A stretch of DNA of 64,000 nucleotides from a virus. Lineage: Duplodnaviria > Heunggongvirae > Uroviricota > Caudoviricetes. The stretch lies in IMG/VR virus record IMGVR_UViG_3300045993_000138. The stretch is one strand, 5' to 3'. The translations under genes were made by a program, and so were the position numbers. The notes below the pieces were generated by a model that made no database searches, was not told the origin of the DNA, and worked only from the letters and a program-made list of their open reading frames with translations. Positions 2,648 through 45,484 of this stretch are shown here, one piece after another. The first letter of the stretch is position 1, and the number at the start of each line of letters is the position of its first letter.

Positions 2648-3706
2648 ATGTCCGTCTTTTTAGACAGAACTTACCTATTGAAAATATCCAGTCGTCTTCG
2701 TAACTTCAAAGAAAAGAAGAACGATTTATATAACTTTTCATGCCCTATTTGCGGAGATTCACAGAAGAACCGCACGAAAGCCCGTGGCTATGTATTTCGT
2801 AAGAATAATGACTATTTTTACACATGTCACAATTGTCAAACGGGAACAACTTTCCCCAAACTATTAAAGCACATCGATGAACAGGAATATTCACAATATT
2901 GCCTTGATCGTTATAGTTCTGGTGACAATAATCGCTCAAATTACGAGAAACCCATAATCGATCTTAAGGGTGGCAGGAAACCAACAGAAGCATTTCAAGA
3001 TACTGTTACACTGCAAAATATATTTTCCAAAAGTGCAGGTAACTATGTGTTTGGGAGCCTAGATACACTACCAGCAGAACATTTTGCTGTTCAATACATT
3101 CGCATGAGAAAGATTCCAGAGAAGTTCTGGAAAGAGATTTTCTATACTAACAAGTTCAAGGATTTCCTAGACAATACATTCAAAGATCACGGCAAGGATA
3201 ATGTTCCAAACGATGATCGTATTGTTCTGTGTTATACTAACTCGAAAGGTGAAATTACGAATGTAGCTGGTAGAGCATTGGGCGAATCGAAAATCAGGTA
3301 TATCACAGTAAAGGTGCTAGATGAAAAAAAGTTGTTCGGCTTGCACAGGTTGCTCCCCAAAGAAACAGTCTACGTCTTGGAAGGTCAGTTCGACTCTTAC
3401 TTCGTGGAAAATAGTGTTGCCAGCGGCGATAGTAATCTATGTGCTGTTCCAGACTTTCTTTCCGACAGTGAGTGTGTTTTAGTTTATGATGCCGAGCCAC
3501 GAAATAAAGAGATTGTAAAACAAATAAACCGTGCCATCGAGAATGACCATTCAGTTGTATTGTTCCCGAATGATATACCCTATAAAGATGTGAATGAAAT
3601 GATCATGAATGGTATGAGTGAGAGTGAAGTGATGAACATTATCCGCGAGAATACTTTTCAAGGTCTAACAGCGAAGCTCAAGTTCGCAGAGTGGAGAAAA
3701 TGCTGA
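2648..3706 (+). CDS. DNA primase, T4 gp61-like (zinc ribbon plus TOPRIM-like core)
   Basis: CPICGDSQKNRTKARGY...YTCHNCQ matches the gp61 zinc-ribbon signature (CPxCGDS..NKARG). Acidic motifs (VLEGQFDSYF, LVYDAEPRN) fit a TOPRIM core. Confidence 0.6.
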   Translation: MSVFLDRTYLLKISSRLRNFKEKKNDLYNFSCPICGDSQKNRTKARGYVFRKNNDYFYTCHNCQTGTTFPKLLKHIDEQEYSQYCLDRYSSGDNNRSNYEKPIIDLKGGRKPTEAFQDTVTLQNIFSKSAGNYVFGSLDTLPAEHFAVQYIRMRKIPEKFWKEIFYTNKFKDFLDNTFKDHGKDNVPNDDRIVLCYTNSKGEITNVAGRALGESKIRYITVKVLDEKKLFGLHRLLPKETVYVLEGQFDSYFVENSVASGDSNLCAVPDFLSDSECVLVYDAEPRNKEIVKQINRAIENDHSVVLFPNDIPYKDVNEMIMNGMSESEVMNIIRENTFQGLTAKLKFAEWRKC

Positions 3707-4449
3707 CAACGAAGTATAAGTCCATATTCATATCTGATATCCACTTAGGATCCAGAGGTTGTAAAGCCGAAGAACTCTGTTCTTTTCTCAAACACAACAC
3801 AAGCGAGAATCTATTTTTAGTAGGAGACATTATTGACGGCTGGAGACTTCGTAGAAAATTCTTTTGGAGACAATCACACACCAATGTAATTCGTAGGTTT
3901 CTTACAGCATCTAAAAGAAATACTAGAGTTGTCTATATTACTGGAAATCACGATGAAGACTTTCGTATGCTCTCTCCATTTTCGTTTGGAAATATAGAAC
4001 TATATAATCACTTCCGCTACAAAGCAGTGAACGGAAAAACATACATGGTTATTCATGGGGATTTGTTTGATGGAGTATTGAGAACACGTTTGAAATTCCT
4101 ATACCATGTCGGAGATTTTGTATACGAACAGTTACTCAGAGTCAATAACCTTCTACAGAAGATCCGCAGCGCATTAGGTCTTTCTTATTGGAGTCTCAGT
4201 GCATACCTGAAAAATAAGACAAAGGAAGCCCTATCTTATTTGAATGATTTCGAAGATCTAATCACAGACTATTGCAAAAAGAAACATGCTGATGGAGTGA
4301 TATGTGGACACGTTCATCATCCAGCAATCAAGATGATAAATGACGTAGAGTATATGAATGATGGAGATTGGGTAGAAAGTTGCACAGCACTTGTGGAACA
4401 TCATGATGGCAAATGGGAGATTGTGGAATGGTTGTTAAGAAAAGAATAG
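3691..4449 (+). CDS. LpxH-family calcineurin-like metallophosphoesterase (UDP-2,3-diacylglucosamine diphosphatase-like)
   Basis: Metal-binding motifs: SDIHLG, GDIIDGW, ITGNHDED, IHGDLFD, GHVHHPAI. The C-terminus DGDWVESCTALVEHHDGKWEIVEW parallels the LpxH tail. Confidence 0.55.
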   Translation: MEKMLTTKYKSIFISDIHLGSRGCKAEELCSFLKHNTSENLFLVGDIIDGWRLRRKFFWRQSHTNVIRRFLTASKRNTRVVYITGNHDEDFRMLSPFSFGNIELYNHFRYKAVNGKTYMVIHGDLFDGVLRTRLKFLYHVGDFVYEQLLRVNNLLQKIRSALGLSYWSLSAYLKNKTKEALSYLNDFEDLITDYCKKKHADGVICGHVHHPAIKMINDVEYMNDGDWVESCTALVEHHDGKWEIVEWLLRKE

Positions 4450-5423
4450 TCATCATTAGTGATGCGTGGTATCCTCAAGTAAATGGGGTTGTCACTACCT
4501 ACACCAATATAATTCAAAACATAGATCATAATGTCTATGACGTAGAACTCATTGAGCCGAGTCAGTTCAAGACTATTCGCTTTCCCTTCTATAAGGAAAT
4601 TGAACTTTCTATTTGTACCAAGAATCGAATGAAGAATATTCTCAAGAATATGGAACCAGTACACCGTTTCCATATTGCCACAGAAGGACCATTAGGGGTT
4701 GCCGCAAAGCGAGCGTTGGATGAAATGGGTATTCGTTACACTACCGCATACCACACCAAGTTTCCAGAATACTTGAAAACTAATTGGGGATTTCCACTGA
4801 CTATTTCCAATGCATTTTTCAACTGGTTTCATAGAAAGTCTCGTATTGTCATGATGCCATCACCTTCTGTAGCAAAAGAAAAGGCACATTGGAATGTTCA
4901 GGTTTCTGGTAAGGGATATGATGAACATTTTATGTTTAGTTCGACCGTCGATGAAAATGATAATAAAATTCTTCTCTATGTCGGCAGAGTAAGTAAGGAA
5001 AAGGGTATCGAAGATTTCTGCCGATTACAGATTCCTCACACAAGAAAGGTTGTGGTTGGAAATGGTCCAGATAAGAAAAGATTGAAAAAGAAGTATCCTG
5101 ATGTAATTTTTGCAGGGTATAAATTTGGAAAAGACCTTGCTAGATATTACCAGTCTGCCAGTGTCTTCGTATTTCCAAGCAGAACTGATACTTTTGGAAT
5201 AGTTGTACTGGAAGCAATGGCATGTGGAACACCCGTAGCCGCATATCCAGTAACTGGTCCAATCGATCAAATTGTTAATGGTGTCAACGGTTACACAAGT
5301 CAAAGTTTGAGTAATGCAGTGGTGAAATGTTTTGCTATTTCACGTAAAAGTGTGTATAATAGTGTAAAGAATATATCGTGGAAGAAGTCTGCCGAGCAGT
5401 TTATTTCACATTTGGAGGGATGA
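4413..5423 (+). CDS. Glycosyltransferase family 4 (GT-B, retaining)
   Basis: N-terminal ISDAWYPQVNGV (Glyco_transf_4-like). C-terminal E-X7-E region FVFPSRTDTFGIVVLEAMACGTPVAA (Glycos_transf_1). Confidence 0.65.
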   Translation: MGDCGMVVKKRIVIISDAWYPQVNGVVTTYTNIIQNIDHNVYDVELIEPSQFKTIRFPFYKEIELSICTKNRMKNILKNMEPVHRFHIATEGPLGVAAKRALDEMGIRYTTAYHTKFPEYLKTNWGFPLTISNAFFNWFHRKSRIVMMPSPSVAKEKAHWNVQVSGKGYDEHFMFSSTVDENDNKILLYVGRVSKEKGIEDFCRLQIPHTRKVVVGNGPDKKRLKKKYPDVIFAGYKFGKDLARYYQSASVFVFPSRTDTFGIVVLEAMACGTPVAAYPVTGPIDQIVNGVNGYTSQSLSNAVVKCFAISRKSVYNSVKNISWKKSAEQFISHLEG

Positions 5424-5425
5424 TT

Positions 5426-6094
5426 ATGAGTAAGATTGATGTATTGAATGGTGGTTTCGTTAGACTAGTAGACTCAATGGGTTCTGATCTTTCAATCGTA
5501 AGAGCCGCAAGAGTATCGTATGACGCGGATTGGCGCGAAGGTGACGAGAAGAGTGATGCAAAACTCATTGGATATCTGATGAAGAATCGTCACACAAGTC
5601 CATTCGAATCAGTGACATTCACATTCGAAGTGAAGGCACCAATCTTTGTATTCCGTCAGTGGCATCGTCACCGCACATGGTCATTCAATGAAATCTCCGC
5701 GAGATACACAGAACTTGATGAAGGTTTCTATGTTCCAGAGTTAGATCAGATCACCACACAGTCAAAAGATAATAAGCAGATGCGAACGAATGAACAGCAT
5801 CCATTAGCACCAAATTTCCAATATATAATTGACTCAAAGTGTCAAGCTGCATTTGCCACATATCGCGCATTGATAGTTGATGGTTGCCCAAGAGAACTCG
5901 CACGTTCTGTGTTGCCAGTAGCAGCATACAGCCGCATGTTCGCAACTTGCGATCTACATAATCTTTTACACTTTATTCGTTTGCGTGATCACGAACATGC
6001 TCAGTATGAAATCAGAGTATACGCACAAGCCATGTTGGAATTGATTAGACCAATCGTTCCAATCGCCACGAAAGAATTTGAGACAACACTATGA
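5426..6094 (+). CDS. thyX: Flavin-dependent thymidylate synthase ThyX
   Basis: ThyX signature FRQWHRHRTWSFNEISARY (RHRx7S) and the full-length fold. RBS GGAGGG upstream of the ATG at 5426. Confidence 0.85.
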   Translation: MSKIDVLNGGFVRLVDSMGSDLSIVRAARVSYDADWREGDEKSDAKLIGYLMKNRHTSPFESVTFTFEVKAPIFVFRQWHRHRTWSFNEISARYTELDEGFYVPELDQITTQSKDNKQMRTNEQHPLAPNFQYIIDSKCQAAFATYRALIVDGCPRELARSVLPVAAYSRMFATCDLHNLLHFIRLRDHEHAQYEIRVYAQAMLELIRPIVPIATKEFETTL

Positions 6095-6357
6095 ATAACG
6101 AAGATTACAGACAGGGATATAGAGACGGTTGGCGCGATGCGCTAAGTCCTATTGTTCCAAAGAAACCATTTGAACCAGAGAATCCATTCATACCACCAAC
6201 TCTGCCACCATTTCCATACAATCCATCACCAGTTAAACAGAAAGACTATTCCTGTCCTGTGTGTGGAATAACATTCGAATTCGGCAAAGCATATGGGTAT
6301 GCTTGCGCTCAATCAAATTGCCCGTCAAAAATAACATCGATGAATATTTCAGAATGA
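6091..6357 (+). CDS. Small Pro-rich protein with zinc-ribbon motif
   Basis: CPVCG...CAQSNCP. ATGA overlap with the next gene. Confidence 0.3.
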   Translation: MNNEDYRQGYRDGWRDALSPIVPKKPFEPENPFIPPTLPPFPYNPSPVKQKDYSCPVCGITFEFGKAYGYACAQSNCPSKITSMNISE

Positions 6358-6824
6358 AACATAAGCATCACATTGTTCCAAAACATGCTGGTGGCACTAA
6401 CGATTCTTCTAATATTGTAGAATTAAGTGTTGCCGAACATGCAGAAGCACATCGTATACTATTTGAAACTTATGGTAGATGGGAAGATGAAATTGCTTGG
6501 AAAACTTTGAGCGGACAAATTGAAATAGATCAAGCTAGAAGATTGGCATCTTCTATTGCCAATAAAGGTAAAGTAAACAGTATAGAAACGAGAATGAAAA
6601 TCTCCATTTCTAGAACAGGACTCAAAGACTCAGAAGAAACTAGAAAATATAAGAGTCAACGATCTAGTGTGAAAGGGAAGAAATATTACCACAATGGTAT
6701 AATAGAATACAGATATTTGGTTGGATCACAACCAGAAAATTGGATTTTGGGTCGGCTTCCAACTGGAACCGAAAGAGGACATGACGGCAGATTTAAAAAT
6801 AAACAAAAGAAGGAAAGAGAATAA
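6355..6824 (+). CDS. HNH homing endonuclease (free-standing)
   Basis: HHIVPKHAGGTNDSSNIVELSVAEHAEAH HNH motif. Start trimmed to the ATG at 6355, which overlaps the upstream stop. Lies immediately upstream of nrdJ. Confidence 0.65.
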
Positions 6825-6825
6825 C

Positions 6826-8514
6826 ATGAAGAATGAACTACCAACAGTATACCAGCAATATATAGCAATCAGCAGATATGCTAGATATTTAGATGAAAGT
6901 GGAAGACGAGAAACTTGGTCAGAAACAGTCAATAGATATTTTGAGTTCTTTAAAAAGAGAACAGATAACAATAAGAAAATTCCTTGGAAGGAATTACAGG
7001 ATGCTGTTTTAAACCTAGAAGTAATGCCTTCTATGAGAGCATTAATGACTGCTGGACCAGCACTAGAAAAAGATAATGTTGCTGGATATAACTGTTCATA
7101 TGTTGTTATTGATAGTCAGAAAGCATTCGATGAAATCATGTATATTTTATGCTGCGGAACTGGAGTGGGTTTCTCAGTCGAATCTCGCTATACCAACAAG
7201 CTTCCAGAGGTTCCAGATGAACTACATCCAACAGACACCACCATCATGTTCAAAGACAGTAAGATCGGATGGGCAACAGGATACAGAGAATTTGTTTCTC
7301 TCCTATATTCAGGTAAGATTCCTCAATGGGATATCTCCAAACTCCGTCCAGCAGGAGAACGTCTTAAGACTTTTGGTGGTCGCGCATCTGGACCAGAACC
7401 ACTCGTAGATCTTCTAAAGTTCACACTCAACATTTTCAACAAAGCCCGTGGTCGCAAACTGACCACATTGGAATGCCATGACATCGTATGTAAAATCGCA
7501 GATATTGTTGTCTGCGGTGGAGTTCGCCGCTCTGCTCTTATTTCTCTATCTGACCTTAATGATGATTACATCCGTAACTCCAAGTCAGGAGAATGGTGGA
7601 CCCACAACGGTCAGCGATCACTCGCTAATAATAGCGCAGTCTATGAACAACGTCCAGACATGGACACATTCATGAAGGAATGGGTTGCACTATACATGTC
7701 TCGTTCTGGAGAACGTGGTCTGTTCTCGCGTGTTGCCTCACAGGCAGCAGCAGCAAAATATGGTCGCAGAGATCCAAAATTGGACTATGGTACGAACCCA
7801 TGTTCAGAAATCATCCTGCGTCCATACCAGTTCTGTAATCTGTCGGAAGTTGTAGTGCGTGCAGAGGATACACTGGAAACATTGAAGCGCAAGGTAAAGC
7901 TTGCAACCATTCTAGGAACACTACAATCTACACTCTCCGACTTCCGTTACATCAACAAGAAGTGGAAGAACAACACCGAAGAAGAAAGATTGCTAGGCGT
8001 TTCTCTGACTGGTATCATGGATCATAAGACACTCAATGGTTCAGTAAACTTTTCATCAAGTGGACAGAATGAAGAACTAGCACGTTGGCTCACAGAAATG
8101 CGTGAACTTGCTGTAAAAACCAACGTTGATCTTTCTAAGGCACTCGGAGTAGAAGCAGCAGCCGCAATCACATGCGTGAAGCCATCAGGGTGCGCAGATA
8201 TCGATACGAAGATTAAAACTTCGAACGGTATTATGACCATCGAAGAAATTTTTGAACATATGGGCTATGATATTCAAAATTGTAATCAGGGCGATTGGCT
8301 AGAGCCAACTAAAGATTTGCTAGTTTATGATGAAAATGATGAATTAAAACCAATCACTAAACTTTTCGTTAATGGATTTGCCGAAACCTATGAAGTTTCA
8401 GACGAGAACGGAAATACTTACAAGTTTACAGCAGAACATAAAGTTAAAGTTACAGGTAAAGGGTGGGTTCGCGTTGACGAACTTTCAGAAGGTGATGATG
8501 TCGTAAAGTTTTAA
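6826..8514 (+). CDS. nrdJ: Class II (B12-dependent) ribonucleotide reductase NrdJ, N-terminal extein fragment fused to N-intein half
   Basis: Class II RNR active-site region GTNPCSEIILRPYQFCNLSEV. The ORF ends with a Hint-like N-intein (starts CADIDTK...) and then a stop codon. True start is ATG 6826 (MKNELPTVYQQY). The track ORF start at 6721 is read-through from the HNH gene. Confidence 0.8.
   Translation: MKNELPTVYQQYIAISRYARYLDESGRRETWSETVNRYFEFFKKRTDNNKKIPWKELQDAVLNLEVMPSMRALMTAGPALEKDNVAGYNCSYVVIDSQKAFDEIMYILCCGTGVGFSVESRYTNKLPEVPDELHPTDTTIMFKDSKIGWATGYREFVSLLYSGKIPQWDISKLRPAGERLKTFGGRASGPEPLVDLLKFTLNIFNKARGRKLTTLECHDIVCKIADIVVCGGVRRSALISLSDLNDDYIRNSKSGEWWTHNGQRSLANNSAVYEQRPDMDTFMKEWVALYMSRSGERGLFSRVASQAAAAKYGRRDPKLDYGTNPCSEIILRPYQFCNLSEVVVRAEDTLETLKRKVKLATILGTLQSTLSDFRYINKKWKNNTEEERLLGVSLTGIMDHKTLNGSVNFSSSGQNEELARWLTEMRELAVKTNVDLSKALGVEAAAAITCVKPSGCADIDTKIKTSNGIMTIEEIFEHMGYDIQNCNQGDWLEPTKDLLVYDENDELKPITKLFVNGFAETYEVSDENGNTYKFTAEHKVKVTGKGWVRVDELSEGDDVVKF
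8191..8511 (+). mobile_element. Split intein, N-terminal half (IntN, ~107 aa)
   Basis: Begins with Cys1 directly after the extein sequence VKPSG. Hint N-terminal blocks are present. Terminated by a stop codon instead of continuing into an endonuclease domain. Confidence 0.7.
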
Positions 8515-8562
8515 AATACTAAATAGTGTTATACCGTCAGGAAGTAAAGAGGGTTTAATACT

Positions 8563-9183
8563 ATGAATTATAAAAAACTATACGAAGAACACCACGGACC
8601 AATACCACAAGATTATGAGATACACCACATAATACCCAGATATGCTGGGGGCACTGATGATATTTCTAATCTTGTGGCTCTCTCTAAAGAACATCATAAA
8701 AAAGCCCACATGGAAAGATATGAAAAATATGGTGACTTTAGGGATTTGTGCGCTTATCATATGATAGGATATAATTTCAGTGAGGCTCATCAAGTTTCTT
8801 CTTCTGAGGGTGGGAAGATTGGTGGAACTAAAGTTTATGATACTGGAGTTGGTATATTTCGCTCTGAAGAAGAAAGAAAAATTTGGGCTGCTATGGGTGG
8901 GAGAATTGGTGGAAAGATGCAAAAAGAAAATGGTCTCGGTATCCACACACCAAACAAAGAACTCAGATTACAGTGGGCGTCTAAGGGTGGTAAAGCATCT
9001 GGTGTATTTCAAGACCCAAAAAGACAGTCTGAATTTGGTAAACGTGGTGGAGTAAAGAACAAAGGATTTCGTTGGTATACTGATAATGAAGGAACCCATA
9101 AAAAGTATACACCAACACAGCAGATTAATGAAAATTTTGAAGATTTCATAAAAAGAACACAATTTAATAGAGGTAGAAAATGA
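8563..9183 (+). CDS. HNH homing endonuclease encoded between the two intein halves
   Basis: HHIIPRYAGGTDDISNLVALSKEHHKKAH. Has its own RBS and ATG. Its stop overlaps the C-intein ATG (ATGA). Confidence 0.7.
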   Translation: MNYKKLYEEHHGPIPQDYEIHHIIPRYAGGTDDISNLVALSKEHHKKAHMERYEKYGDFRDLCAYHMIGYNFSEAHQVSSSEGGKIGGTKVYDTGVGIFRSEEERKIWAAMGGRIGGKMQKENGLGIHTPNKELRLQWASKGGKASGVFQDPKRQSEFGKRGGVKNKGFRWYTDNEGTHKKYTPTQQINENFEDFIKRTQFNRGRK

Positions 9184-9287
9184 AAGTAGCAAAGATTAGA
9201 AAGACGGGAACCGCAACTCTTACAGCAGATATTGAAGTTGCTGATACACACTCATATCAGTTAGACAATGGTTGGGTGGTTCATAAT
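9180..9287 (+). mobile_element. Split intein, C-terminal half (IntC, 36 aa)
   Basis: MKVAKIRKTG...ADIEVADTHSYQLDNGWVVHN carries the canonical C-terminal blocks F/G ending in HN, followed by the +1 Thr of the extein. Confidence 0.7.
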
Positions 9288-9836
9288 ACAGTTTCACAAT
9301 TGGTTGACTCTGCTTCAGGTATTCATCCTCGTTATTCACAGTACTATATTCGCAGAGTACGTGCAGACAAGAAGGATCCTCTTGCAAACTTCATGATCAG
9401 TAAGGGATACGTTGCCGAAGAAGACTTCTATGGAAAATCAAATTGGGTATTCTCATTTCCAATGAAGGCACCAGAAGGCGCGGTTCTCACCAAGGATGTT
9501 ACTGCAATTGAACAGCTAGAACTTTGGAAGATCTATCAGGAACATTGGTGCGAACATAAGCCATCTATTACAGTATTCGTAGGTGACGACGAATGGATGG
9601 ATGTTGGAGCATGGGTCTATAAGAACATGACAGCAATTTCAGGAGTTTCATTCCTTCCAAGAGACACTGGATCATATCGTCAGGCACCATATGAGGAAAT
9701 TGATGAGGCTAAGTATAATGAACTTCTGGCAATTCAAAATGTCAGTATTGATTGGGTGGAGTTCAAGGAAGAAACTGATATGACTGTTGGTTCTCAAAGT
9801 CTTGCTTGTGTTTCTGGCGTTTGTGACATAACTTGA
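9180..9836 (+). CDS. nrdJ: NrdJ C-terminal extein fragment, translated with IntC leader
   Basis: After ...VVHN the sequence TVSQLVDSASGIHPRYSQYY continues the class II RNR C-terminal region. Confidence 0.75.
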   Translation: MKVAKIRKTGTATLTADIEVADTHSYQLDNGWVVHNTVSQLVDSASGIHPRYSQYYIRRVRADKKDPLANFMISKGYVAEEDFYGKSNWVFSFPMKAPEGAVLTKDVTAIEQLELWKIYQEHWCEHKPSITVFVGDDEWMDVGAWVYKNMTAISGVSFLPRDTGSYRQAPYEEIDEAKYNELLAIQNVSIDWVEFKEETDMTVGSQSLACVSGVCDIT

Positions 9837-10288
9837 ACAAGATTGGGAATAAATTCAAGTGGGGTACATATGACAACAATGGCAGGGTATGTCGTAAATG
9901 TCAGGTGTATAAAACTTGGGATAATTTTCATGCACACAGTGAATGTCCACATGGTAAAAACACTACATGTATAGATTGTAGAAAACCATTGTCCAAACAA
10001 CAATGGAAATCTAAAGACATTGTAAAGAAAATACTCCAGCGCGCAAAGAGTAGGGCTGTTTTAAGAGATAGAGATTTTGATATTGACGAAAGTGATATTG
10101 TGATTCCAGATATTTGTCCAGTTCTAAAAATACCGATGGTTCAACCTAGTATTGATAGAATTGATAACAGTAAAGGATATGTGAAAGGAAATGTTCGTAT
10201 CATTTCTAATAGAGCAAATACACTTAAAAACAATGCTGAAATTTGGGAATTGAAACTTATATTAGAAGATATGGAAAATCATGAGTAA
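9833..10288 (+). CDS. HNH endonuclease (HNH_3 / AP2-like) with N-terminal Cys-rich finger
   Basis: IDRIDNSKGYVKGNVRIISNRAN motif plus CRKCQ...CPHGKNTTCIDC. Apparent TTG start overlaps the nrdJ stop. Confidence 0.5.
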   Translation: MNKIGNKFKWGTYDNNGRVCRKCQVYKTWDNFHAHSECPHGKNTTCIDCRKPLSKQQWKSKDIVKKILQRAKSRAVLRDRDFDIDESDIVIPDICPVLKIPMVQPSIDRIDNSKGYVKGNVRIISNRANTLKNNAEIWELKLILEDMENHE

Positions 10289-11840
10289 TATGAAAGGCAT
10301 CCCCTCAGTGAGTTTTATCAATCTGAGGGAATGTAAATATAGACGATCCAAACTGCAAGAGCAATTAGATCAGCTTCGTGTTAAGACTAGACACGTTCAT
10401 ATTAATGAACGTTACTCTGACATCAAGAGTGAATTGAATGTAGAATGTCCAAGAGCCGATATCATGGATGATGTCGGTTTTGGAGTTACCATTTCTCATT
10501 TGGAATCAGTGAAATATTGGTATGAAAATACTAATGAACCTTATGCACTCTTCTGCGAAGACGATATTAATTTGATGACATCACAAAATTGGAATTTCAC
10601 ATTCCAAGATGTATTAGACAATCTTCCTAGTGATTGGGAAGCACTACAACTGATACGTATCAAAAATTTCAGCACTGGATATGATGGATCCGAAGGCATC
10701 AATTTCAGAGAAAGAGAATGGGACGATTGGGGTTGTGCTGCCGTATTCATGAAGAGAAGTTATGCCAGAAAACTTCTGGCAAGACATATTACTCCCACAG
10801 GATATAGATTAGATCTTGGACACATTCAACCTATTGTAGAGAATGTCATGCTATATGGACTAGGAAAGGTTTATAATCTACCTTTGTTCAGAGAATGGTT
10901 ATTCAAAGAATCTACAGATCCTTGGGATCTAGAACGTGGAGTGAAGGACGATCATAAGAAATCTAGTGATTTCATCCAAGATTTCTGGAGAAACAATACA
11001 AAATCCATAGAAGAGATAATGGGAACTGATAAGATGAAGCTTAGGGGATTTCCATCGATTACATATGTGAATTTGATCGGATCTGCCGATAGAAGAATGT
11101 TCATGGAGAATCAATTCAAAAAATACGATATTGAAAAACACACCAGACATAGTACACACAGATATGAAAACATATCAGACTGTTATACAGTTACGTGTAA
11201 AGGTCTGCTAGATCATGGGCATCCGGGGGTTGCTATTTCATTCTTAGAAGCTATTGAGGCTTGGTACGATCTGACAAATGAAGAATATGCAATATTCTGT
11301 GATGATGATTCTAGTTTTGAAAGCATTGATGATTGGTCTTTCACTTGGAAAGAATTCATGAAAAATCTTCCAGAAGATTGGGAATGTATTCAGTTGATTC
11401 GTATCAATGAGTGGGTCGATGGTGGCTACTTCAAGTATGATGAAACAGAGATTCCGGCACTCCGCATAAGAAAGAGACAGTGGGATGATTGGGGATCTTC
11501 GTTTATGCTTAAGCGTAGTTATGCCAAAAAATTGATTGATAAGTATAAAGTTGGTGATAGTTCATACGATTTTTCAATAGAAGATCCAGATTGGGGATAT
11601 CTACATCCTCTCATTGAGAACATTCTATTTCGAAATCTAGGTGTGGTCTACAGTTTTCCGTTGTTGTTGGAGCATCAATACTTTGATTCTTCGATTCATC
11701 CTGATTCGATTTCAAGAATCAGAGACACTGAGAACTTTAATCCTCTAAACCCTCACAATCTATCGTATACATATTATTCGAAGCTATGGAAAGAAGTCGG
11801 CAAAACAACTTCAATTGAACAAATGATGGGGAAAATTTGA
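10281..11840 (+). CDS. Tandem-domain glycosyltransferase family 25 (LPS-type beta-glycosyltransferase, Lic2B/LgtB-like)
   Basis: Two internally repeated ~240-aa units. Each starts with the GT25 motif (FINLRECKYRRSKL; VNLIGSADRRMF) and contains FC(E/D)DD and LP(S/E)DWE(A/C)(L/I)QLIRI. Confidence 0.55.
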   Translation: MSNMKGIPSVSFINLRECKYRRSKLQEQLDQLRVKTRHVHINERYSDIKSELNVECPRADIMDDVGFGVTISHLESVKYWYENTNEPYALFCEDDINLMTSQNWNFTFQDVLDNLPSDWEALQLIRIKNFSTGYDGSEGINFREREWDDWGCAAVFMKRSYARKLLARHITPTGYRLDLGHIQPIVENVMLYGLGKVYNLPLFREWLFKESTDPWDLERGVKDDHKKSSDFIQDFWRNNTKSIEEIMGTDKMKLRGFPSITYVNLIGSADRRMFMENQFKKYDIEKHTRHSTHRYENISDCYTVTCKGLLDHGHPGVAISFLEAIEAWYDLTNEEYAIFCDDDSSFESIDDWSFTWKEFMKNLPEDWECIQLIRINEWVDGGYFKYDETEIPALRIRKRQWDDWGSSFMLKRSYAKKLIDKYKVGDSSYDFSIEDPDWGYLHPLIENILFRNLGVVYSFPLLLEHQYFDSSIHPDSISRIRDTENFNPLNPHNLSYTYYSKLWKEVGKTTSIEQMMGKI

Positions 11841-11841
11841 T

Positions 11842-12822
11842 ATGGGAAATTTTGTAAAGCATGTATTGAATAATGGTGGAAGCATACACCCTCTGATCAT
11901 TCCAGCAGATCAGACAAACGGAACTGGAACATTCAATCCGTCCGTCTATAATGACAATGGAAAACTGATGTTCAATGTCAGGCATTGTCAAGTAACAATC
12001 TATCATTCAGAACTAGGTAAGTTCGAACATGAGTGGGGTCCACTGGTGTATCTAAATCCAGAGAATGATGTTACTCTGACAACCACCAATTTCTTCTGTC
12101 ATCTTAATGATGACTTGTCTATATCCAAGGTAGATAAGGTTAATTTTGACAAGTTCAATGTCAAGCCAATTTGGGAATTCATTGGTCTAGAAGACTGTCG
12201 AGTTTTTCGATGGGAAGGAAAGATGTACCTCTGTGGTGTACGCAGAGACACTACTACGAATGGTGTCGGCAGAATGGAACTCTCTGAAATTGAAATCGAT
12301 GAAAACGGAGTCAGGGAAGTATCCAGATTCAGAATTCCTGCACCAAATGACGATGGATCCTATTGCGAAAAGAACTGGATGCCAATTCTAGATATGCCAT
12401 TCCACTTTCTAAAGTGGTGTAATCCGGTAGATATTGTCAAGGTAGATCCAGTAGAAAAGACATGTAAGAACGTCATCGTGGGTAAACCACAGTTGAATGG
12501 AATCAGAGATCAACGTGGTGGATCACAGGTCATTCCATTGAAGAATGGCGAACATATGTGCATCACTCATGAGGTAGATCTATTCAAGAGTACCAATGGA
12601 AACAAGGATGCCACGTATAGACACAGAATCATTAGATTCGACAAGGATTGGAACGTTGCCAAGATTTCAGATCTATTCTCGTTCTTCGAAGCCGAGATTG
12701 AATTTTGTGCTGGCATGGCAGAACATGGTAACAATTATCTGATCACATTCGGAGTTACTGATAATGCTGCCTACTTACTTCGTTGCCCAAAGAAAGTGAT
12801 TGAGGATATCATCTATGGATAA
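11842..12822 (+). CDS. Hypothetical protein, possibly beta-propeller glycosidase/phosphorylase-like
   Basis: The GTGTFNPSV motif is reminiscent of GH43/GH130-type propellers. Weak evidence only. Confidence 0.35.
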   Translation: MGNFVKHVLNNGGSIHPLIIPADQTNGTGTFNPSVYNDNGKLMFNVRHCQVTIYHSELGKFEHEWGPLVYLNPENDVTLTTTNFFCHLNDDLSISKVDKVNFDKFNVKPIWEFIGLEDCRVFRWEGKMYLCGVRRDTTTNGVGRMELSEIEIDENGVREVSRFRIPAPNDDGSYCEKNWMPILDMPFHFLKWCNPVDIVKVDPVEKTCKNVIVGKPQLNGIRDQRGGSQVIPLKNGEHMCITHEVDLFKSTNGNKDATYRHRIIRFDKDWNVAKISDLFSFFEAEIEFCAGMAEHGNNYLITFGVTDNAAYLLRCPKKVIEDIIYG

Positions 12823-14872
12823 ACTACAGAATGCGCTGAATGAATTTTCCGTCGATACGGAAAATTCCGAGAAGAATTATCGACTAGCATTGTGCTATGA
12901 AGAAATCAAGCAGACTGCATCTGCCGTGACGTATTTCTTTAGAGCAGCCGAAAGAACCGAAGATAAGACTCTGGCATACGAATGTCTGGTGAAAATGGCA
13001 CTATGTTTTGAAAGACAGGGTAACAGAGAAAACACCGTCAGAAGAGTTCTACAGAGTGCAATAAGTCTTCTACCAAAAAGACCAGAAGCATACTTCCTAA
13101 TGAGTCGAGCGTTGGATAGAGTTCGTAGCTATGTCGATGGATATGTGTATTCACAAATAGCACTCGAAAACTGTGATTTTAACATTCCACCACTAAGATC
13201 ATATGTCGAATATCCCGGTAAGTATGGTGTCATATTCGAAAAGGCAGTCTGTGCATGGTGGTGGGGAAAGATTGAAGAGTCTACCAGTCTATTCTTTCAT
13301 CTACAGGATGTTTATGGAATGCAGTTGGATTCGGCGCACGCAAATGCCATTCAGTCTAATATCGATAAGCTGAATCTGAAAAGACCAAATACCAAGAAGA
13401 CAATCATCGATTGTTTCACATACTATGATGAAACGTGTCGAGAGATTCTGGAATTGAGATATAATGTTCTCAAGGATCATGTCGATAAGTTTGCCGTGTG
13501 TGAGTCTAATAAGACTCAGACTGGTGTTCCTATTGAAAGAAAACTAAGACAGACTATTGCCGAACTTGGTCTTGATGCTAGCAGGTTCATCATTGTGGAT
13601 CTTGATATTCCAGATGAAGATTCACTGGAAGTCAGAGAAATTGATAGAATGAATTGCTATGAAGACAAGAACGAAAGATCATACAAAGCAAGAGTCAGAG
13701 AACGTGTTCAGAAGAACTTCTTGAATTCGCCAAGAGTATTGAATCTGTTCGATAATAACACCTACTTCATCGTCAGTGATTGTGATGAAATTATCGATCC
13801 AAAAAACATCGAATTTGTCATGAATATGGCAGATCAATACCCAAACAACATTTTCAAGCTGCCACTGGCACACCTTGAAGGTAAGGCGAATCTTCGTGTA
13901 CTCAAGAGAAGTACCATGACACCAAAACCTTGGGATGGTGCAATGTTTGTGTGTAAGAAAGAACATCTGAGAAAGGCAGAAGTAATTCAGATCAGATCCA
14001 ATCTTGAGAATCCATTTCCAATTCTATATCTGACACAGGATGGAAAGAGAATCGAAGACTTCGGCTGGCACTTCTCTTGGATGGGAGATTCTTCAAGAAG
14101 ACTCAAGAAACTGGAAGGATTCGTACATAGTAACGAGAAGATGTCTATTCTTCAAACTGGAAGCTACGATTCCAAGGAAACTCTGGAAAGAATGGCAAAG
14201 GATCCAAGACCCGGAGACATGTCAGTAAGCTGCGAAGTGGACACAATTCTTGTGAAATATCCAGAAAACAAGCTTCCACCAGAGATAACACAGAACGAAA
14301 AGATGCGTGATTTTTTTTTAACTAAGGATGATACCGTGAGCAATGAAAATTTAACAGTTGAAGAACTACTAGAAAGTGAATATCAGCATTCATGTAATAA
14401 TGGAAGCGACATATATGCTCACGTTCCAACTCTAAGAAAGTATGCTTCTGAGTGTAAGCATGTCACCGAAATGGGTGTTCGCGACGGTCAATCGACCCGC
14501 GCATTGCTTCCAGAGAATGTAGTTCTTAGATCATATGACCTATTTCTAGATCCGTTGGTAACTGCCTTGTTTGTTAAGGCAAAATCCATCGGTAAGGATG
14601 TAGAATATTTGGTGGGTGATACACTAGCAATTGACATTGAAGAGACTGATTTATTGTTCCTAGATACAGAGCATACATACCAACAGGTGACTGGTGAATT
14701 GAATAGACATCATACGAAGGTCAGAAAGTATATCGCATTCCACGATACTGCCGAACCTTTCGTTGGTGAAGTTCTACCAGCAATCGTGGATTTCACAATT
14801 AGAAATCCAGAGTGGAAGTTTGTTTATCACAACAGAGACTGTCATGGATTTACAGTCATAGCAAAGGAGTAA
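12800..14872 (+). CDS. Multidomain protein: N-terminal TPR, central GT17-like glycosyltransferase, C-terminal class I SAM methyltransferase-like
   Basis: IIDCFTYYDETCREILELRYNVLKDHVDKFAVCESNKTQTG fits the Glyco_transf_17 signature (F.F.NE.D.LE.RL...VD.FVI.ES..TF.G). VTEMGVRDGQST is MTase motif I-like. N-terminal TPR-like helices. Alternative start at 12815. Confidence 0.5.
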   Translation: MRISSMDKLQNALNEFSVDTENSEKNYRLALCYEEIKQTASAVTYFFRAAERTEDKTLAYECLVKMALCFERQGNRENTVRRVLQSAISLLPKRPEAYFLMSRALDRVRSYVDGYVYSQIALENCDFNIPPLRSYVEYPGKYGVIFEKAVCAWWWGKIEESTSLFFHLQDVYGMQLDSAHANAIQSNIDKLNLKRPNTKKTIIDCFTYYDETCREILELRYNVLKDHVDKFAVCESNKTQTGVPIERKLRQTIAELGLDASRFIIVDLDIPDEDSLEVREIDRMNCYEDKNERSYKARVRERVQKNFLNSPRVLNLFDNNTYFIVSDCDEIIDPKNIEFVMNMADQYPNNIFKLPLAHLEGKANLRVLKRSTMTPKPWDGAMFVCKKEHLRKAEVIQIRSNLENPFPILYLTQDGKRIEDFGWHFSWMGDSSRRLKKLEGFVHSNEKMSILQTGSYDSKETLERMAKDPRPGDMSVSCEVDTILVKYPENKLPPEITQNEKMRDFFLTKDDTVSNENLTVEELLESEYQHSCNNGSDIYAHVPTLRKYASECKHVTEMGVRDGQSTRALLPENVVLRSYDLFLDPLVTALFVKAKSIGKDVEYLVGDTLAIDIEETDLLFLDTEHTYQQVTGELNRHHTKVRKYIAFHDTAEPFVGEVLPAIVDFTIRNPEWKFVYHNRDCHGFTVIAKE

Positions 14873-14875
14873 GGA

Positions 14876-15061
14876 ATGTCTTCATCAGACGCATATCTAG
14901 AAATGTCATGTAATAATTGCGAGTCTATATTTTCCATAGAATATATGGATGGAAATGTAAACGGTAGCCCAATCTATTGTCCGTTTTGCGGAGAAGTGAT
15001 TCAAGAAGATAACACATCATACAAGGACGACGAAGACAAAGAAGATCTTGACGAATATTGA
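14876..15061 (+). CDS. Small zinc-ribbon protein with acidic tail
   Basis: CNNCES...CPFCG. Confidence 0.3.
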   Translation: MSSSDAYLEMSCNNCESIFSIEYMDGNVNGSPIYCPFCGEVIQEDNTSYKDDEDKEDLDEY

Positions 15062-15102
15062 TCCACTATATACTATTGAACATATAATAATCGAGAACGC
15101 AT

Positions 15103-15711
15103 ATGGCAGAGACTCCTACAATTGGAATCGATTACTCTCTGAGTTGCCCTGCCATGTGCATAATGACTGCACCGAATATAGCTAATTGTGCCTTCTATTT
15201 TCTGACTGTACACAAAAGAATGGTTGGTACTGTTGACAGATATGTTGGATATGAACACAAGGAATACTACACAGAACAAGAACGTTACGATAACATAGCC
15301 GAGTTCTTTTTGAATAAGATTCCAATTCATCCGAAACCACCAAATATCTTTATTGAAGATTATTCGTTTGGTTCGAAAGGTAGAGTTTTTCACATTGCAG
15401 AAAATACTGGATTACTGAAATATAAGCTATGGGAAGTGGGGCTAAAGTTTGAGACTATACCACCCACAGTGATAAAGAAATTTGCTACATCGAAGGGCAA
15501 TGCTGACAAACAAAAAATGTATGATGCTTTTGTTGAGGAAACTGGTGTAAAGCTGATTCCGACGTTCTCCAAAACGGGTAAGTTGGATAGTCCAGTGACC
15601 GATATCGTAGACAGTTTTTATATCGCAAAATACGGCTATCATCTGACTCACTCACCAATTTTAGGGGAACAAGATGCAGACCACAAACATAAAAAGCTTA
15701 AAGCTAGATGA
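15103..15711 (+). CDS. RuvC-like Holliday junction resolvase (RNase H fold)
   Basis: Candidate catalytic residues: D in TIGIDYSLS, E in IFIEDYSF, and DxxD in TDIVDSFYIAKYG. Confidence 0.45.
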   Translation: MAETPTIGIDYSLSCPAMCIMTAPNIANCAFYFLTVHKRMVGTVDRYVGYEHKEYYTEQERYDNIAEFFLNKIPIHPKPPNIFIEDYSFGSKGRVFHIAENTGLLKYKLWEVGLKFETIPPTVIKKFATSKGNADKQKMYDAFVEETGVKLIPTFSKTGKLDSPVTDIVDSFYIAKYGYHLTHSPILGEQDADHKHKKLKAR

Positions 15712-16072
15712 AGATGATGTAGACGCAATCTCATTTTCGATGGATGCGGATGCGGGACAAGAAACTTGTTGGAATTTTAGCATAATGAAACTGACTGACA
15801 GACCAGAATTTTGGCATAACGAATTGGGATATAAGTATCAAGTAGTGCTTTACAAAGGCGATAGAGCCGAAGTTTTTGAAGCTATCATTGGAGATTTGAA
15901 ATATTACATCAACAACCTGATTGGCATCAAGCAAGAAGGTATGATCATGAAGAAGTGCAGCAAATCTGATGAGATCATGGAAAAGCTATTCAGAAAGAAG
16001 TATATTAATGAATTGTCTTATGGACTCGTTCAAATTGCTTCACAGAAGCAGAAGGAACTAGAAACGATATGA
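15674..16072 (+). CDS. Hypothetical protein
   Basis: ORF overlapping its neighbours in operon fashion. Confidence 0.3.
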
Positions 16073-17016
16073 ATTATATTATAGCAGGGGGAGCGGGATT
16101 TCTCGGCTCACATTTGGCAAAAGCATTGATGGGGGAAGGTCATCATGTCACAATCCTCGATAACTTATGTACAGGGCAAATGGAAAACGTTAAGTCGCTA
16201 TTTGGAAGAGGCGATTTCTCTTTCATGCGTCTTGATATTAATGATCCTTGCCTTACCGATCATCTTGGCGACGGTCCTTATGACGGTATCTTTAATCTCG
16301 CTTGCCCTGCTAGTCCAATCCATTACCAAAACATCCCAATCGAAACCACATTAACATGTGTAGTTGGTTCGAACAATTTATTGATGTTGGCGAAGAAATA
16401 TGGGTGTAGAATTCTCCAAGCGTCTACTTCCGAGGTATACGGTGATCCAGAAATTACTCCGCAGCCTGAGACTTATGTGGGACACGTTAACAGCTATGGT
16501 CCCCGCGCCTGTTACGATGAAGGTAAGAGGGCTGCGGAAGCTTTGTTCTATGATTACAAGAGGATTCATAAGGTCGATACGAGGGTTGTTCGTATTTTCA
16601 ATACTTATGGTCCTAATATGTGCGTGGATGATGGTCGCGTGGTATCTAACTTCATAGTACAGGCACTCAGAGGAACTGACATCACAATCTATGGTGATGG
16701 ATATCAGACTAGATCCTTCTGTTATGTCGATGATCTGGTTCGTGGATTGATAACATTCTTCAATCAGAATGAAATCAACGGACCTATGAATCTTGGAAAT
16801 CCAGAAGAATTCACAATGCTTGAACTAGCAGAATCTATCATTGATTTGACTGGAAGCAAATCCAAGATCATTCATCTTCCACTTCCACAAGATGATCCAA
16901 CACAAAGATGTCCAGATATCACACTTGCGAATTCTATCGGTTGGAAGCCAAGCATTCTTTTAAATGAAGGATTGCCTCCAACTATTAACTATTTCAAGAC
17001 AAAACTGGCAGTTTGA
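16069..17016 (+). CDS. UDP-glucuronate decarboxylase / UDP-xylose synthase (SDR family)
   Basis: GGAGFLGSH Rossmann motif, YDEGKR catalytic YxxxK and the UXS-specific RIFNTYGP. Confidence 0.8.
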
Positions 17017-17073: not shown

Positions 17074-17376
17074 ATGATCAATCGATATGAAAGAATCCGC
17101 AAGATTCTAAAGAACAATGAAACCGTAGTTTCATTCGTAAAGCTTAATGGCGATCTTAGAACGATGCGCTGCACACTCAAGCCAGAACTTCTTCCAGAAG
17201 ACACTCGTACCACTGTCGAACAGGTTGTTGAATCAGAAGTAACTCCGACTGCCGTGCGTGTGTGGGATCTTGAAAAGACTGCATGGCGCTCTTTCCGTAT
17301 TGATGGTGAACTTCATGTGTCTTATGATAACACGACAATTCACTTTGACGCTGTTGATAGTGAGGAAGTTGTCTAA
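17074..17376 (+). CDS. Hypothetical protein
   Basis: ORF with RBS (AGGAG). Overlaps the next start. Confidence 0.35.
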   Translation: MINRYERIRKILKNNETVVSFVKLNGDLRTMRCTLKPELLPEDTRTTVEQVVESEVTPTAVRVWDLEKTAWRSFRIDGELHVSYDNTTIHFDAVDSEEVV

Positions 17377-19874: not shown

Positions 19875-20012
19875 TGTTCGGTGAAGCATTCGGAATGATG
19901 TTCAAAAGTCTCAAAGTAACCTTTGTGGCAGCAGTTGTAATGTTCCCATTGGCTATTTGGAAACTGGTTGATATTTCGATTTGGATATACAATCGTCTAT
20001 AAATAGGTTTAT

Positions 20013-44998: not shown

Positions 44999-45484
44999 AT
45001 GTCCCTAATCAGAACAAAAGGTGATCTAATCTCACTAGCATTCGAAGGTCACTTTGATGTGATCGTTCATGGCTGCAACTGTTATTGTGCTATGGGTGCT
45101 GGTATTGCCAGAGACATTGCAGACCGTATTCCTGCCGCATATGATGCAGACAAGTTTACTGTGCGTGGTGATGCCAGCAAGATTGGTACGTACACGGCAG
45201 TTAGCGTTCCGACAAAAACAAGTCCAGTATCACTCTTTATGGTAGTGAATGCCTATACTCAGGTTATTCCATCATGGTCGAACCGGAATGTATTCGAATA
45301 CGATGGATTCGAGAGGATTCTGAATTCTCTTGCCGTAGAATACAAAGGTTCACGATTCGGATTCCCATATATCGGTATGGGACTTGCTGGTGGCGATAAG
45401 ACTCGCATCATTCCAATGATCGAAGCATTCGCGGACAAGGTAACATTGGCAGGTGGAACGGTAACTCTAGTGGAGTTTGGATAA
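44999..45484 (+). CDS. Macro domain protein (ADP-ribose binding/processing)
   Basis: DVIVHGCNCYCAMGAGIARDI matches the macro-domain Gly-rich loop. Confidence 0.55.
   Translation: MSLIRTKGDLISLAFEGHFDVIVHGCNCYCAMGAGIARDIADRIPAAYDADKFTVRGDASKIGTYTAVSVPTKTSPVSLFMVVNAYTQVIPSWSNRNVFEYDGFERILNSLAVEYKGSRFGFPYIGMGLAGGDKTRIIPMIEAFADKVTLAGGTVTLVEFG

Follow-up and report, generated by a model that had tools for sequence, protein, structure and literature searches.

Aquatic T4-like phages are already known to carry many glycosyltransferases, and the viral auxiliary genes pstS, phoA, and phoH tap phosphorus pools. Virion glycosylation machineries, compared here, occur in chlorovirus PBCV-1, whose capsid glycans include xylose and which encodes the multidomain glycosyltransferase/methyltransferase A064R, in mimivirus, with its fibril and collagen glycosylation, and in mycobacteriophages, with their glycosylated capsids and tails. 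In marine heterotrophic bacteria under phosphorus stress, diacylglycerol is made from phosphatidylglycerol or phosphatidylethanolamine by PlcP and is glycosylated by Agt/GTcp (PMC4796936; PMC8231724). PlcP is a Mn-dependent metallophosphoesterase, and an operon with agt is the commonest plcP context (PMC4796936; PMC8231724); in Burkholderia, a plcP-agt-dagK operon is conserved (10.1101/2023.05.30.542800). Genes resembling both kinds of system were found in IMG/VR record IMGVR_UViG_3300045993_000138, of which a 64-kb window, the whole stretch of DNA analysed, is considered here; all positions refer to this window. The region concerned is made up of densely packed open reading frames (ORFs), all on the plus strand, in which two functionally separate modules are present:

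3700-5423, plus strand: module A, a phosphoesterase gene and a GT4 glycosyltransferase gene
10281-17016, plus strand: module B, genes for a tandem GT25-like protein, a GH130-fold protein, a fusion of tetratricopeptide repeat (TPR), GT17, and methyltransferase domains, and a UDP-xylose synthase (UXS)

Module A is probably a horizontally acquired plcP-agt lipid-remodelling cassette, and module B very probably builds a glycan. The two-module account is the best explanation reached; taken as a whole it is tentative, doubt weighing slightly heavier than belief. An earlier note on this DNA had named five of the ORFs, all of which exist on the plus strand where it had placed them, and had read the 13 kb that they span as one carbohydrate-active gene set. 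The carbohydrate-active calls stood for four of the five, and the ORF at 11842-12822, a sixth carbohydrate-type gene with a GH130 fold, had been overlooked. A single functional operon of 13 kb was rejected, as ORFs for ThyX, ribonucleotide reductase (RNR), HNH proteins, an endonuclease VII-like protein, and RuvC are interleaved, as sister phages either lack the module A pair or carry it elsewhere, and as UXS is seldom found with the core of module B (5 of 80 viral loci). Modules A and B, which are unrelated, are parted by a spacer of about 4.9 kb that is occupied by genes of nucleotide metabolism and for homing endonucleases.

The phosphoesterase-glycosyltransferase pair of module A

Module A comprises the following two genes:

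3700-4449, plus strand: LpxH-fold metallophosphoesterase, proposed PlcP-type phospholipase C; 249 amino acids (aa) from ATG, an alternative GTG at 3691 giving 252 aa
4413-5423, plus strand: GT4 glycosyltransferase (GT-B fold) of the Agt/GTcp diacylglycerol-glycosyltransferase clade; 336 aa, overlapping the 3' end of the phosphoesterase gene

The bacterial plcP-agt operons used for comparison were those of Sinorhizobium, SAR11 HTCC7211 (PlcP/GTcp), Phaeobacter MED193, Agrobacterium (Agt), and Burkholderia (plcP-agt-dagK). The window pair shares their arrangement, namely a metallophosphoesterase with the full set of metal motifs directly upstream of a GT4 of ~335 aa with the clade motifs, but it is phage-encoded, is ~40-54% identical to the bacterial copies, and is not accompanied in the window by dagK, bta, or ols. 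The phosphoesterase matched Pfam Metallophos (1.1e-12); the metal motifs DxH, GD, GNHD, HGD, and GHxH were all found, and the alignment of the family shows no variation at residues D13, H15, D43, N83, H84, H119, H204, and H206. Similarly, the GT4 protein matched Glycos_transf_1 (PF00534; 1.3e-26), in line with the earlier call, and Glyco_transf_4 (PF13439; 1.3e-9), its best NCBIfam matches being glycolipid synthases. The Agt/GTcp clade is recognized by the motifs GRVAxEKN and FPSxTDTFG and by an Asp in place of the first Glu of the E-x7-E motif (PMC8231724). The window protein possesses GRVSKEK(G) at position 191, its first clade motif ending in G and not in N, FPSRTDTFG at position 254, and D259-x7-E267; E-x7-E itself, which had been cited for this protein in the earlier note, is absent. 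Eleven residues of GTcp are essential according to mutagenesis (G16, G82, G85, H104, R190, K195, D256, T257, F258, G259, and E264; PMC8231724), and their candidate counterparts in the window protein, assigned by relative spacing, are G25, G92, G95, H114, R192, K197, D259, T260, F261, G262, and E267.

The order of the two genes is conserved in bacteria and viruses. When bacterial loci were retrieved with the GT4 alignment as genome-scan query, a phosphoesterase homologue occurred directly upstream of the GT4 gene and on the same strand in 57 of the 80 species loci, including SAR116, Azospirillum, and several Burkholderia. The same order was found in 68 of the 77 IMG/VR loci with enough upstream sequence, the relatives in this database numbering at least 132. 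Among bacteria, the phosphoesterase has its nearest homologue (54% identity) in an operon of an OlsF-like acyltransferase, a GT4 protein, a metallophosphoesterase, and a second GT4 protein, the GT4 that follows the phosphoesterase being 40% identical to that of the window. This ornithine-lipid-type acyltransferase marks the bacterial operon as one for lipids under phosphate stress. In Burkholderia loci, a homologue with 45-46% identity occupies the plcP position; for a dagK gene after the Burkholderia dolosa pair, no Pfam match was found in the one ORF tried. Furthermore, the cultured Pelagibacter phage Mosig (L094; MT647606, 5897-7732) encodes a phosphoesterase homologue with 56.7% identity, divergent beside a gene for a putative phosphate ABC transporter (pstS-like), and has no Agt-type GT4. 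Synteny with related phages, a comparison that the earlier note had proposed, held throughout for an independent public contig (L005), whose gene order is identical to that of the window. It did not hold for module A in the sister contigs: the cassette is missing from L001 and L091, and in L092, the called genes of which are otherwise as in L091, it occupies another site, between nrdA and the thioredoxin gene. This presence or absence and the different insertion site fit a mobile auxiliary gene cassette. In the genome scan with the GT4 alignment, the bacterial matches were all 39-46% identical and pointed to no particular donor lineage.

The earlier note had placed the phosphoesterase in the LpxH family and had reasoned from there towards lipid A or lipopolysaccharide (LPS) substrates. 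The fold was called rightly. Indeed, the best solved-structure match of the family profile was LpxH (5k8k; 1.6e-15; positions 7-240 versus 4-235), with which the calcineurin-like fold is shared over a full-length alignment that includes the insertion (lid) between the metal motifs; LpxH also gave the best NCBIfam matches, and the homologues of Mosig and S-SRM01 are annotated in GenBank as (putative) UDP-2,3-diacylglucosamine hydrolase. Membership of LpxH, however, is defined by curated equivalog cut-offs of 134 bits (NF003743) and 190 bits (TIGR01854), far above the 45.6 and 33.3 bits obtained with these models, and among the 38 family members scanned, the best match to either model was no better than E 8.4e-19. 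In addition, no lpx genes were found near the phosphoesterase gene, the conserved neighbour of which, in phage and bacteria alike, is the gene for an Agt-type GT4, a diacylglycerol glycosyltransferase, and its bacterial context contains the ornithine-lipid-type acyltransferase. The scores below the cut-offs, the missing lpx context, and the Agt-clade partner led to rejection of a role on lipid A precursors, in which a true LpxH (UDP-2,3-diacylglucosamine diphosphatase) would act beside an LPS-core or lipid A-related GT4; such a role is hardly credible, and the substrate reasoning built on it is not supported, as the phosphoesterase pairs with its GT4 in the manner of plcP-agt operons.

The PlcP class of the phosphoesterase is proposed from motifs, gene order, and the published description, and two points count against the plcP-agt assignment. 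Firstly, since the nearest solved structure is LpxH, the phosphoesterase may instead be a UDP-sugar or nucleotide-lipid pyrophosphatase. Secondly, of the IMG/VR loci with ~42% identity, many may derive from prophages or from fragments of host DNA.

As a plcP-agt cassette, module A would work in two steps. The PlcP-like phosphoesterase would cut the phosphorylated head group off a host phospholipid, leaving diacylglycerol, to which the Agt-like GT4 would add a sugar from UDP-glucose, UDP-galactose, or UDP-glucuronate, yielding a phosphorus-free glycolipid. Phosphorus would in this way be freed, or the demand for it lowered, while phage DNA is made, so that the pair would constitute auxiliary metabolic genes following the same logic as phage pstS and phoH. 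Literature searches for phage-encoded plcP found no relevant publication, and plcP-agt as a viral auxiliary function appears to be undescribed in the literature searched. More than 100 contigs predicted to be viral carry the cassette, and a cultured pelagiphage carries its phosphoesterase, which databases label as an LpxH-type hydrolase. If the assignment is right, phages of phosphorus-poor waters remodel the membrane lipids of their hosts, membrane phospholipid is a further phosphorus pool open to them, and the counts of lipid-remodelling genes in ocean metagenomes have to be read differently.

The predicted glycan-building enzymes of module B

Module B comprises four carbohydrate-type genes:

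10281-11840, plus strand: tandem GT25-like GT-A glycosyltransferase; 519 aa, catalytic units at ~1-246 and ~247-519
11842-12822, plus strand: five-bladed beta-propeller with a GH130/GT108 fold, recognized by fold search, proposed beta-mannosyl-transferring enzyme; 326 aa
12815-14872, plus strand: three-domain fusion with TPR (1-185), GT17 GT-A (196-~500), and class I S-adenosylmethionine (SAM)-methyltransferase-fold (515-685) domains; 685 aa from ATG
16069-17016, plus strand: UDP-glucuronate decarboxylase (UXS), an extended short-chain dehydrogenase/reductase (SDR); 315 aa

The core of the module is formed by the second and third of these genes. The GH130-like protein is a five-bladed beta-propeller that lies closest to GH130 structures, its top structural neighbours being mannoside phosphorylases. 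The fold search alone gave its identity: at the level of the sequence family it reached 16.1 bits with PF04041 against a cut-off of 26 (E 0.0055, over 35 residues), and its profile found no sequence in the PDB even at E 10. It differs from the GH130 and GT108 enzymes in this lack of a significant sequence match, in being phage-specific and extremely conserved, and in its coupling to a TPR enzyme. Its gene is the most conserved of the region: homologues in metagenomes number more than 4600, with 59-100% identity among the best 120, and across thousands of contigs the identity is 52-100%. Between the stop of this ORF and the ATG of the TPR fusion there is an overlap of 8 nucleotides, and the coordinates of L003, L004, and L005, that is, two cultured Synechococcus phages and contig L005, show the same overlap. 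When 80 IMG/VR loci with a GH130-like homologue were surveyed, 77 had downstream sequence, and 75 of these 77 carried a TPR-module homologue downstream on the same strand, immediately downstream in 49 cases. The other genes of the module accompany the core far less regularly among the 80 loci (GT25 in 23, GT17 in 13, UXS in five, and a methyltransferase of the window type in four), and elsewhere the TPR module has other partners, namely FkbM or Methyltransf_24 methyltransferases, GT2/Glyco_transf_7C, radical SAM, and DUF6445 proteins. This pairing in 75 of 77 loci together with the variable partners indicates that the GH130-like enzyme and the TPR module form the invariant unit, the decorations being interchangeable. 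The pair is carried by two cultured cyanophages, S-SCSM2R and DSL-LC02, and to our knowledge has no counterpart in the PBCV-1, mimivirus, and mycobacteriophage systems. In S-SCSM2R (L003; 8305-11833), the gene labels look unreliable, the GH130-like protein being called 'MGP protein', the TPR enzyme 'cytochrome c-type biogenesis protein CcmH/NrfG', and the product of the gene ahead of the GH130-like ORF 'baseplate wedge subunit and tail pin'.

The TPR-GT17-methyltransferase fusion had been recognized in the earlier note, and structure prediction agrees with it, the AlphaFold model (mean confidence, pLDDT, of 91.5) showing three domains with the boundaries listed above. The start is the ATG at 12815, a TTG at 12800 giving a 690-aa form. 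For the GT17 domain, PF04724 gave 29.9 bits with the whole protein and 30.4 bits with the domain alone (cut-off 26), and D322-x-D324 and GWHFSW417 are invariant in the family. It resembles GT17 (MGAT3/GnT-III) in being a GT-A domain with a DXD motif and support at the Pfam level, and differs in that the match is confined to the N-terminal half of the Pfam model, covering positions 70-203 of 348. The view of GT17 as a eukaryotic-type import did not hold, as hundreds of homologues in phage-type metagenome contigs carry PF04724; furthermore, GT17 proteins of uncultured Caudovirales superpose at TMt 0.74-0.83. Characterised GT17 relatives add sugar to beta-mannose, the activity of GnT-III being the beta-1,4-transfer of GlcNAc. 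In Foldseek searches, the TPR part retrieved CTPR, OGT, and SPY, and the methyltransferase part retrieved TehB (2i6g; 7.9e-6), CCoAOMT (3ntv), and NodS (3ofk). The sequence support for the methyltransferase is weak (Methyltransf_24, 18.2 bits versus 26.3; best PDB profile match, E 0.1), its motif I reading EMGVRDGQST. With its N-terminal TPR array joined to a glycosyltransferase, the fusion resembles OGT, SPINDLY, and Listeria GmaR, which are among its top Foldseek neighbours, but its catalytic domain is a GT-A domain of GT17 and not of GT41 or GT2. Caulobacter FlmG is a further protein-glycosylating TPR-glycosyltransferase. A search of the rest of the window for paralogues of the three parts of the fusion found none. 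The TPR module of related phages is joined to a variety of enzymes (FkbM, Methyltransf_24, radical SAM, GT2, GT25), for which reason it looks like a shared docking module and less like a part of one enzyme. In the relatives L001 and L002, the protein is 503 aa long and has no methyltransferase domain, and in L091 and L092, the GT17 protein is free-standing (296 aa) and the TPR part is fused to an FkbM methyltransferase. In many related phages, namely the IMG/VR loci L105, L113, L117-L119, L124, and L174, the protein after the GH130-like gene is of the type GT25-TPR-GT25 or GT25-TPR-methyltransferase, with the TPR part internal.

The first gene of module B encodes, as had been noticed before, an internal tandem duplication. 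Indeed, the halves of the 519-aa protein are 33% identical (E 1e-48), both match phrog_2835 (two stretches, 4.3e-66), and each maps onto single cyanophage genes of ~240 aa annotated as GT25. A DXD motif is present in either half (EDD93 and DDD341), and all invariant positions of the family are kept. Membership of GT25 itself, as proposed in the earlier note, drew no direct Pfam support, as neither the 519-aa protein nor either half matched PF01755 (gathering threshold 24 bits). It is supported by many homologues that carry PF01755, such as P0125, which has the same tandem layout at 35% identity and scores 30.2 bits, and by the GT25-like family profile, which matched 8xlz, a GT25 enzyme of solved structure (1.7e-5), in an alignment that runs across the DXD motif. 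Compared with the LgtB/Lic2A-type lipooligosaccharide (LOS) transferases of GT25, the protein shares the GT-A domain with DXD motif and the profile- and Pfam-level support, and differs in consisting of two apparently intact units in tandem and in lying itself under Pfam detection. Characterised bacterial GT25 members act on LOS or LPS, and the collagen galactosyltransferase COLGALT1 is a further GT25 enzyme. As the sister phages L001 and L091 carry a single GT25 copy of 252-253 aa, the duplication is recent and lineage-specific.

The last gene of the module had been read as a UXS gene, and this is borne out. Its product matched human UXS1 (4gll) over residues 3-313 (phmmer, 2.1e-98, 332.7 bits), contains all the catalytic and cofactor motifs (GAGFLGS, STSEVYG, YDEGK as YxxxK, and RIFNTYGP), and scored 129.5 with the dTDP-glucose dehydratase model, under the cut-off of 365. 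On this evidence, the predicted SDR is a genuine UXS. Genes for UDP-glucose dehydrogenase and for GDP-mannose synthesis were not found among the window ORFs scanned, which suggests that sugar precursors would come from the host. Literature searches on the use of UDP-xylose in phage virions found nothing relevant.

Candidate acceptors of the module B glycan

The best-supported acceptor is a virion fibre, a target held tentatively and at a likelihood close to, yet short of, an even call. Runs of at least eight G-X-Y repeats within 10 kb, taken as collagen-like, were present in 44 of the 80 core-pair loci and in one of 80 control loci (Fisher p ~9e-16), the controls being loci around the DUF2828/DUF7788 gene (window 22706-24121) in related phages. 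Of the 44 core loci of at least 15 kb in length, 31 had such runs, and in 42 of the 44 positive loci the runs lay upstream on the same strand. The ORF just 5' of the GH130-like gene often encodes a giant protein, those examined having a high content of Gly, Gln, and Thr and containing G-X-Y repeats, and two of these giants matched Pfam Collagen (5e-161 and 1.6e-141). The latter, from L093, has at its end the intramolecular chaperone Peptidase_S74, a domain that is characteristic of tail fibres and spikes; the gene for this protein lies between neck/small-terminase and large terminase/sheath genes. Similarly, the core pair of the cultured Synechococcus phage DSL-LC02 lies between collagen-like and tail-fibre genes. 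In addition, no transmembrane segments were found in any of the enzymes, which are predicted to be soluble, and no flippase, polymerase, or Gtr-type gene was present. A weaker GH130-like homologue (26% identity) occurs in a phage with an Actinomycetia host on record, a host that presumably has no LPS. The soluble enzymes, the linkage to collagen-like and fibre genes, and this Actinomycetia-phage homologue together favour a phage-intrinsic protein acceptor, namely virion fibres, over host LPS.

Several points weigh against a fibre target. The loci of the collagen-proximity comparison are not phylogenetically independent, and proximity to fibre genes is equally expected from a generic hypervariable host-recognition island. 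A collagen-like ORF is absent from the 64-kb window, so that the target is transferred from other phages, and in the lineage of the window, module B lies among replication and nucleotide genes. The T4-type late promoter TATAAATA has one site in the window, at 19998, which is not upstream of module B and is below the number expected by chance; a scan of the window for sigma-70 promoters did not exceed the shuffled expectation either. Finally, glycosyltransferases in the host-recognition clusters of pelagimyophages and cyanomyophages have been read as O-chain modifiers (PMC7029224).

This last point belongs to the strongest alternative, which is unlikely, namely that module B modifies the host envelope, altering an LPS O-chain, a capsule, or another surface glycan during infection and thereby blocking superinfection or changing a receptor. 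The LOS and LPS substrates of characterised bacterial GT25 members speak for it, as do the many 'LPS-related' glycosyltransferases in those clusters, for which O-chain modification was favoured (PMC7029224), and the position of module B in the window beside early-type replication genes instead of structural genes. Set against this, flippase, polymerase, Gtr-type, and membrane proteins are missing and the enzymes appear soluble; the 52-100% identity of the GH130-like core over thousands of contigs and the 26% match in the Actinomycetia phage fit a phage-intrinsic acceptor better; the core is strongly linked, in fixed orientation, to collagen-like fibre genes; and TPR-glycosyltransferase fusions in solved structures (OGT, SPY, GmaR) are typically protein glycosyltransferases. 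Of the two targets that the earlier note had offered for the GT25, GT17, and UXS genes, glycosylation of virion proteins is hence the favoured one and the host envelope the less supported.

A second alternative, which is improbable, is a metabolic role, the GH130-like protein being a beta-mannoside phosphorylase by which a compatible solute or a soluble oligosaccharide is scavenged or made, and the remaining enzymes being unrelated morons. GH130 enzymes are usually catabolic phosphorylases, a point that counts against a glycan-building role, and the top structural neighbours of the window protein are mannoside phosphorylases; a cyanophage homologue bears the GenBank label 'MGP protein'. The invariant E117-D118-x-R120, R134-R135, R162/R164, H243, K255, and Y259 are candidates for the catalytic Asp and the basic phosphate-binding residues, which, with the conformation of the L2 loop, distinguish phosphorylases, hydrolases, and transferases. 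GH130 and GT108 together include phosphorylases, hydrolases, and GDP-mannose-dependent beta-mannosyltransferases, the GDP-mannose transferase activity of characterised GH130 enzymes being weak (PMC12814180), but the related GT108 family contains true beta-mannosyltransferases (PMC12814180). Moreover, a soluble metabolic enzyme accords poorly with a gene that has as its partner, in 75 of 77 loci, a TPR module with attached domains of the glycosyltransferase or methyltransferase type, that is translationally coupled to the next gene, and that is linked to fibre genes. Lastly, DNA hypermodification, in which the glycosyltransferases would act on modified phage bases, was rejected as very improbable, since the ORFs scanned, of which the thymidylate synthase is ThyX, include neither a hydroxymethylase nor any further enzyme that modifies bases, and since the core pair lies in fibre or structural regions in most other phages, even though phages are known to employ glycosyltransferases on their DNA (PMC7029224) and module B adjoins nucleotide-metabolism and recombination genes (ThyX, RNR, endonuclease, and RuvC) in the window lineage. 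We know of no DNA-glycosylating members among GT25, GT17, GH130-fold, or TPR proteins.

The domain identities, the duplication, the synteny, and the co-occurrence statistics are observed; for both modules we infer the enzymatic activities and the donor and acceptor sugars, and for module B also the docking by the TPR module and the fibre target in the window phage. Module B would be a soluble cytoplasmic glycan-building set, with the GH130-fold enzyme translationally coupled to the TPR multi-enzyme as its core. The GH130-fold enzyme would transfer beta-linked mannose, or handle a beta-mannoside. Docking by the TPR module would bring the tailoring enzyme either to the GH130-like protein or to the acceptor on which this protein works. 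The glycan would be lengthened by the GT17 domain and both GT25 units and methylated by the C-terminal domain of the fusion, and UXS would convert host UDP-glucuronate into UDP-xylose as one donor. The likeliest acceptor would be a collagen-like tail fibre, so that the virion would display a glycan varying by lineage. The fullest joint version, which is doubtful, combines an independent plcP-agt cassette with modular phage protein glycosylation, in which a GH130 beta-mannosyltransferase primes collagen-like fibres and the TPR module docks GT25, GT17, GT2, O-methyltransferase, and radical SAM enzymes, with xylose added in the present phage.

Such a set would resemble the viral glycosylation machineries named above, which also feature soluble multi-domain enzymes with GT-A and methyltransferase parts, nucleotide-sugar synthesis of their own, and targets on the virion surface, including collagen-like ones. 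It differs from them in its families (GT25, GT17, GH130-fold, and TPR) and in its bacterial host. A GH130-like/TPR system tied to collagen-like fibres appears to be undescribed in the literature searched. If fibres are indeed glycosylated, an abundant and strongly conserved gene pair, with its more than 4600 homologues, defines a phage glycosylation system, the swappable tailoring domains of which likely set host range, the properties of receptor-binding fibres, or the protection of fibres from proteases and grazers, and the usual labelling of genes of this kind as coding for LPS or O-antigen enzymes would be corrected.

Surrounding genes and phage lineage

The modules are flanked and interrupted by genes of other types:

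2648-3706, plus strand: primase, first in the gene order
5420-10288, plus strand: non-carbohydrate spacer with ThyX, an HNH ORF, a class II RNR divided by a split intein, a free-standing HNH endonuclease between the RNR parts, and an endonuclease VII/HNH-like ORF
Between the 685-aa fusion (ending at 14872) and UXS (starting at 16069), plus strand: a 61-aa ORF, RuvC, and a 132-aa ORF
15103-15711, plus strand: RuvC-like Holliday junction resolvase (phrog_159, 1.8e-30), outside the glycan module

The primase shares ~40% identity with its counterparts in T4-like cyanophages, in Methylophilales phage Melnitz, and in Ralstonia phage RSP15, and no close DNA relative was found in the collection of deposited phages, the sole match being a 240-bp stretch of the RNR gene. 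The window hence belongs to an uncultured T4-like aquatic myovirus lineage. The Pfam labels of the spacer (Thy1, RNR-II, and HNH) were read on contig L005, and the endonuclease VII/HNH-like ORF (9833-10288) corresponds to phrog_3322/1035. The RuvC gene lies syntenically between the module and UXS also in L001, L091, and L121.

The class II RNR gene (6781-9836) is 'fractured', being interrupted by a split intein. Its N-terminal part ends in ...TCVKPSG|CADIDTKIKTSNG, with an intein-N fragment of ~93 aa, and its C-terminal part opens with an intein-C fragment, ...DNGWVVHN|TVSQLVDSASG; the free-standing HNH endonuclease ORF (8563-9183) separates the two parts. The junctions were set by comparison with the uninterrupted RNR homologue of L001, which reads TCVKPSGTVSQLVDSASG. 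A second HNH ORF (6354-6824) lies just 5' of the RNR gene.

Further along the window, two ORFs encode multihaem cytochrome c-type proteins (53496-54194 and 54250-55020) with four and seven CXXCH motifs, respectively, and matches to Pfam Cytochrome_C7/c3, the second having a signal-peptide-like N-terminus. They lie at 52-56 kb, where the GC skew goes negative, which suggests an acquired island. The ORF at 45484-46146 matched Acb3, an inhibitor of the CBASS defence system (PF25187, 7.4e-34), and is a candidate anti-defence gene. The DUF2828/DUF7788 protein (471 aa; 22706-24121), the gene of which served to define the control loci, matched phrog_850, 'RNA-binding protein' (1.3e-146), and shares 43-48% identity with counterparts in many large, unrelated phages that infect Enterobacteria, Aeromonas, and cyanobacteria. 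Other genes code for an SPFH/Band 7 protein (31604-32410), an HD_5 phosphohydrolase (55494-56069), an ATP-dependent DNA ligase (42936-44234), and a WYL_2 protein (17074-17376). The latter and the next protein (356 aa; phrog_11903) are syntenic with UXS in every relative seen.

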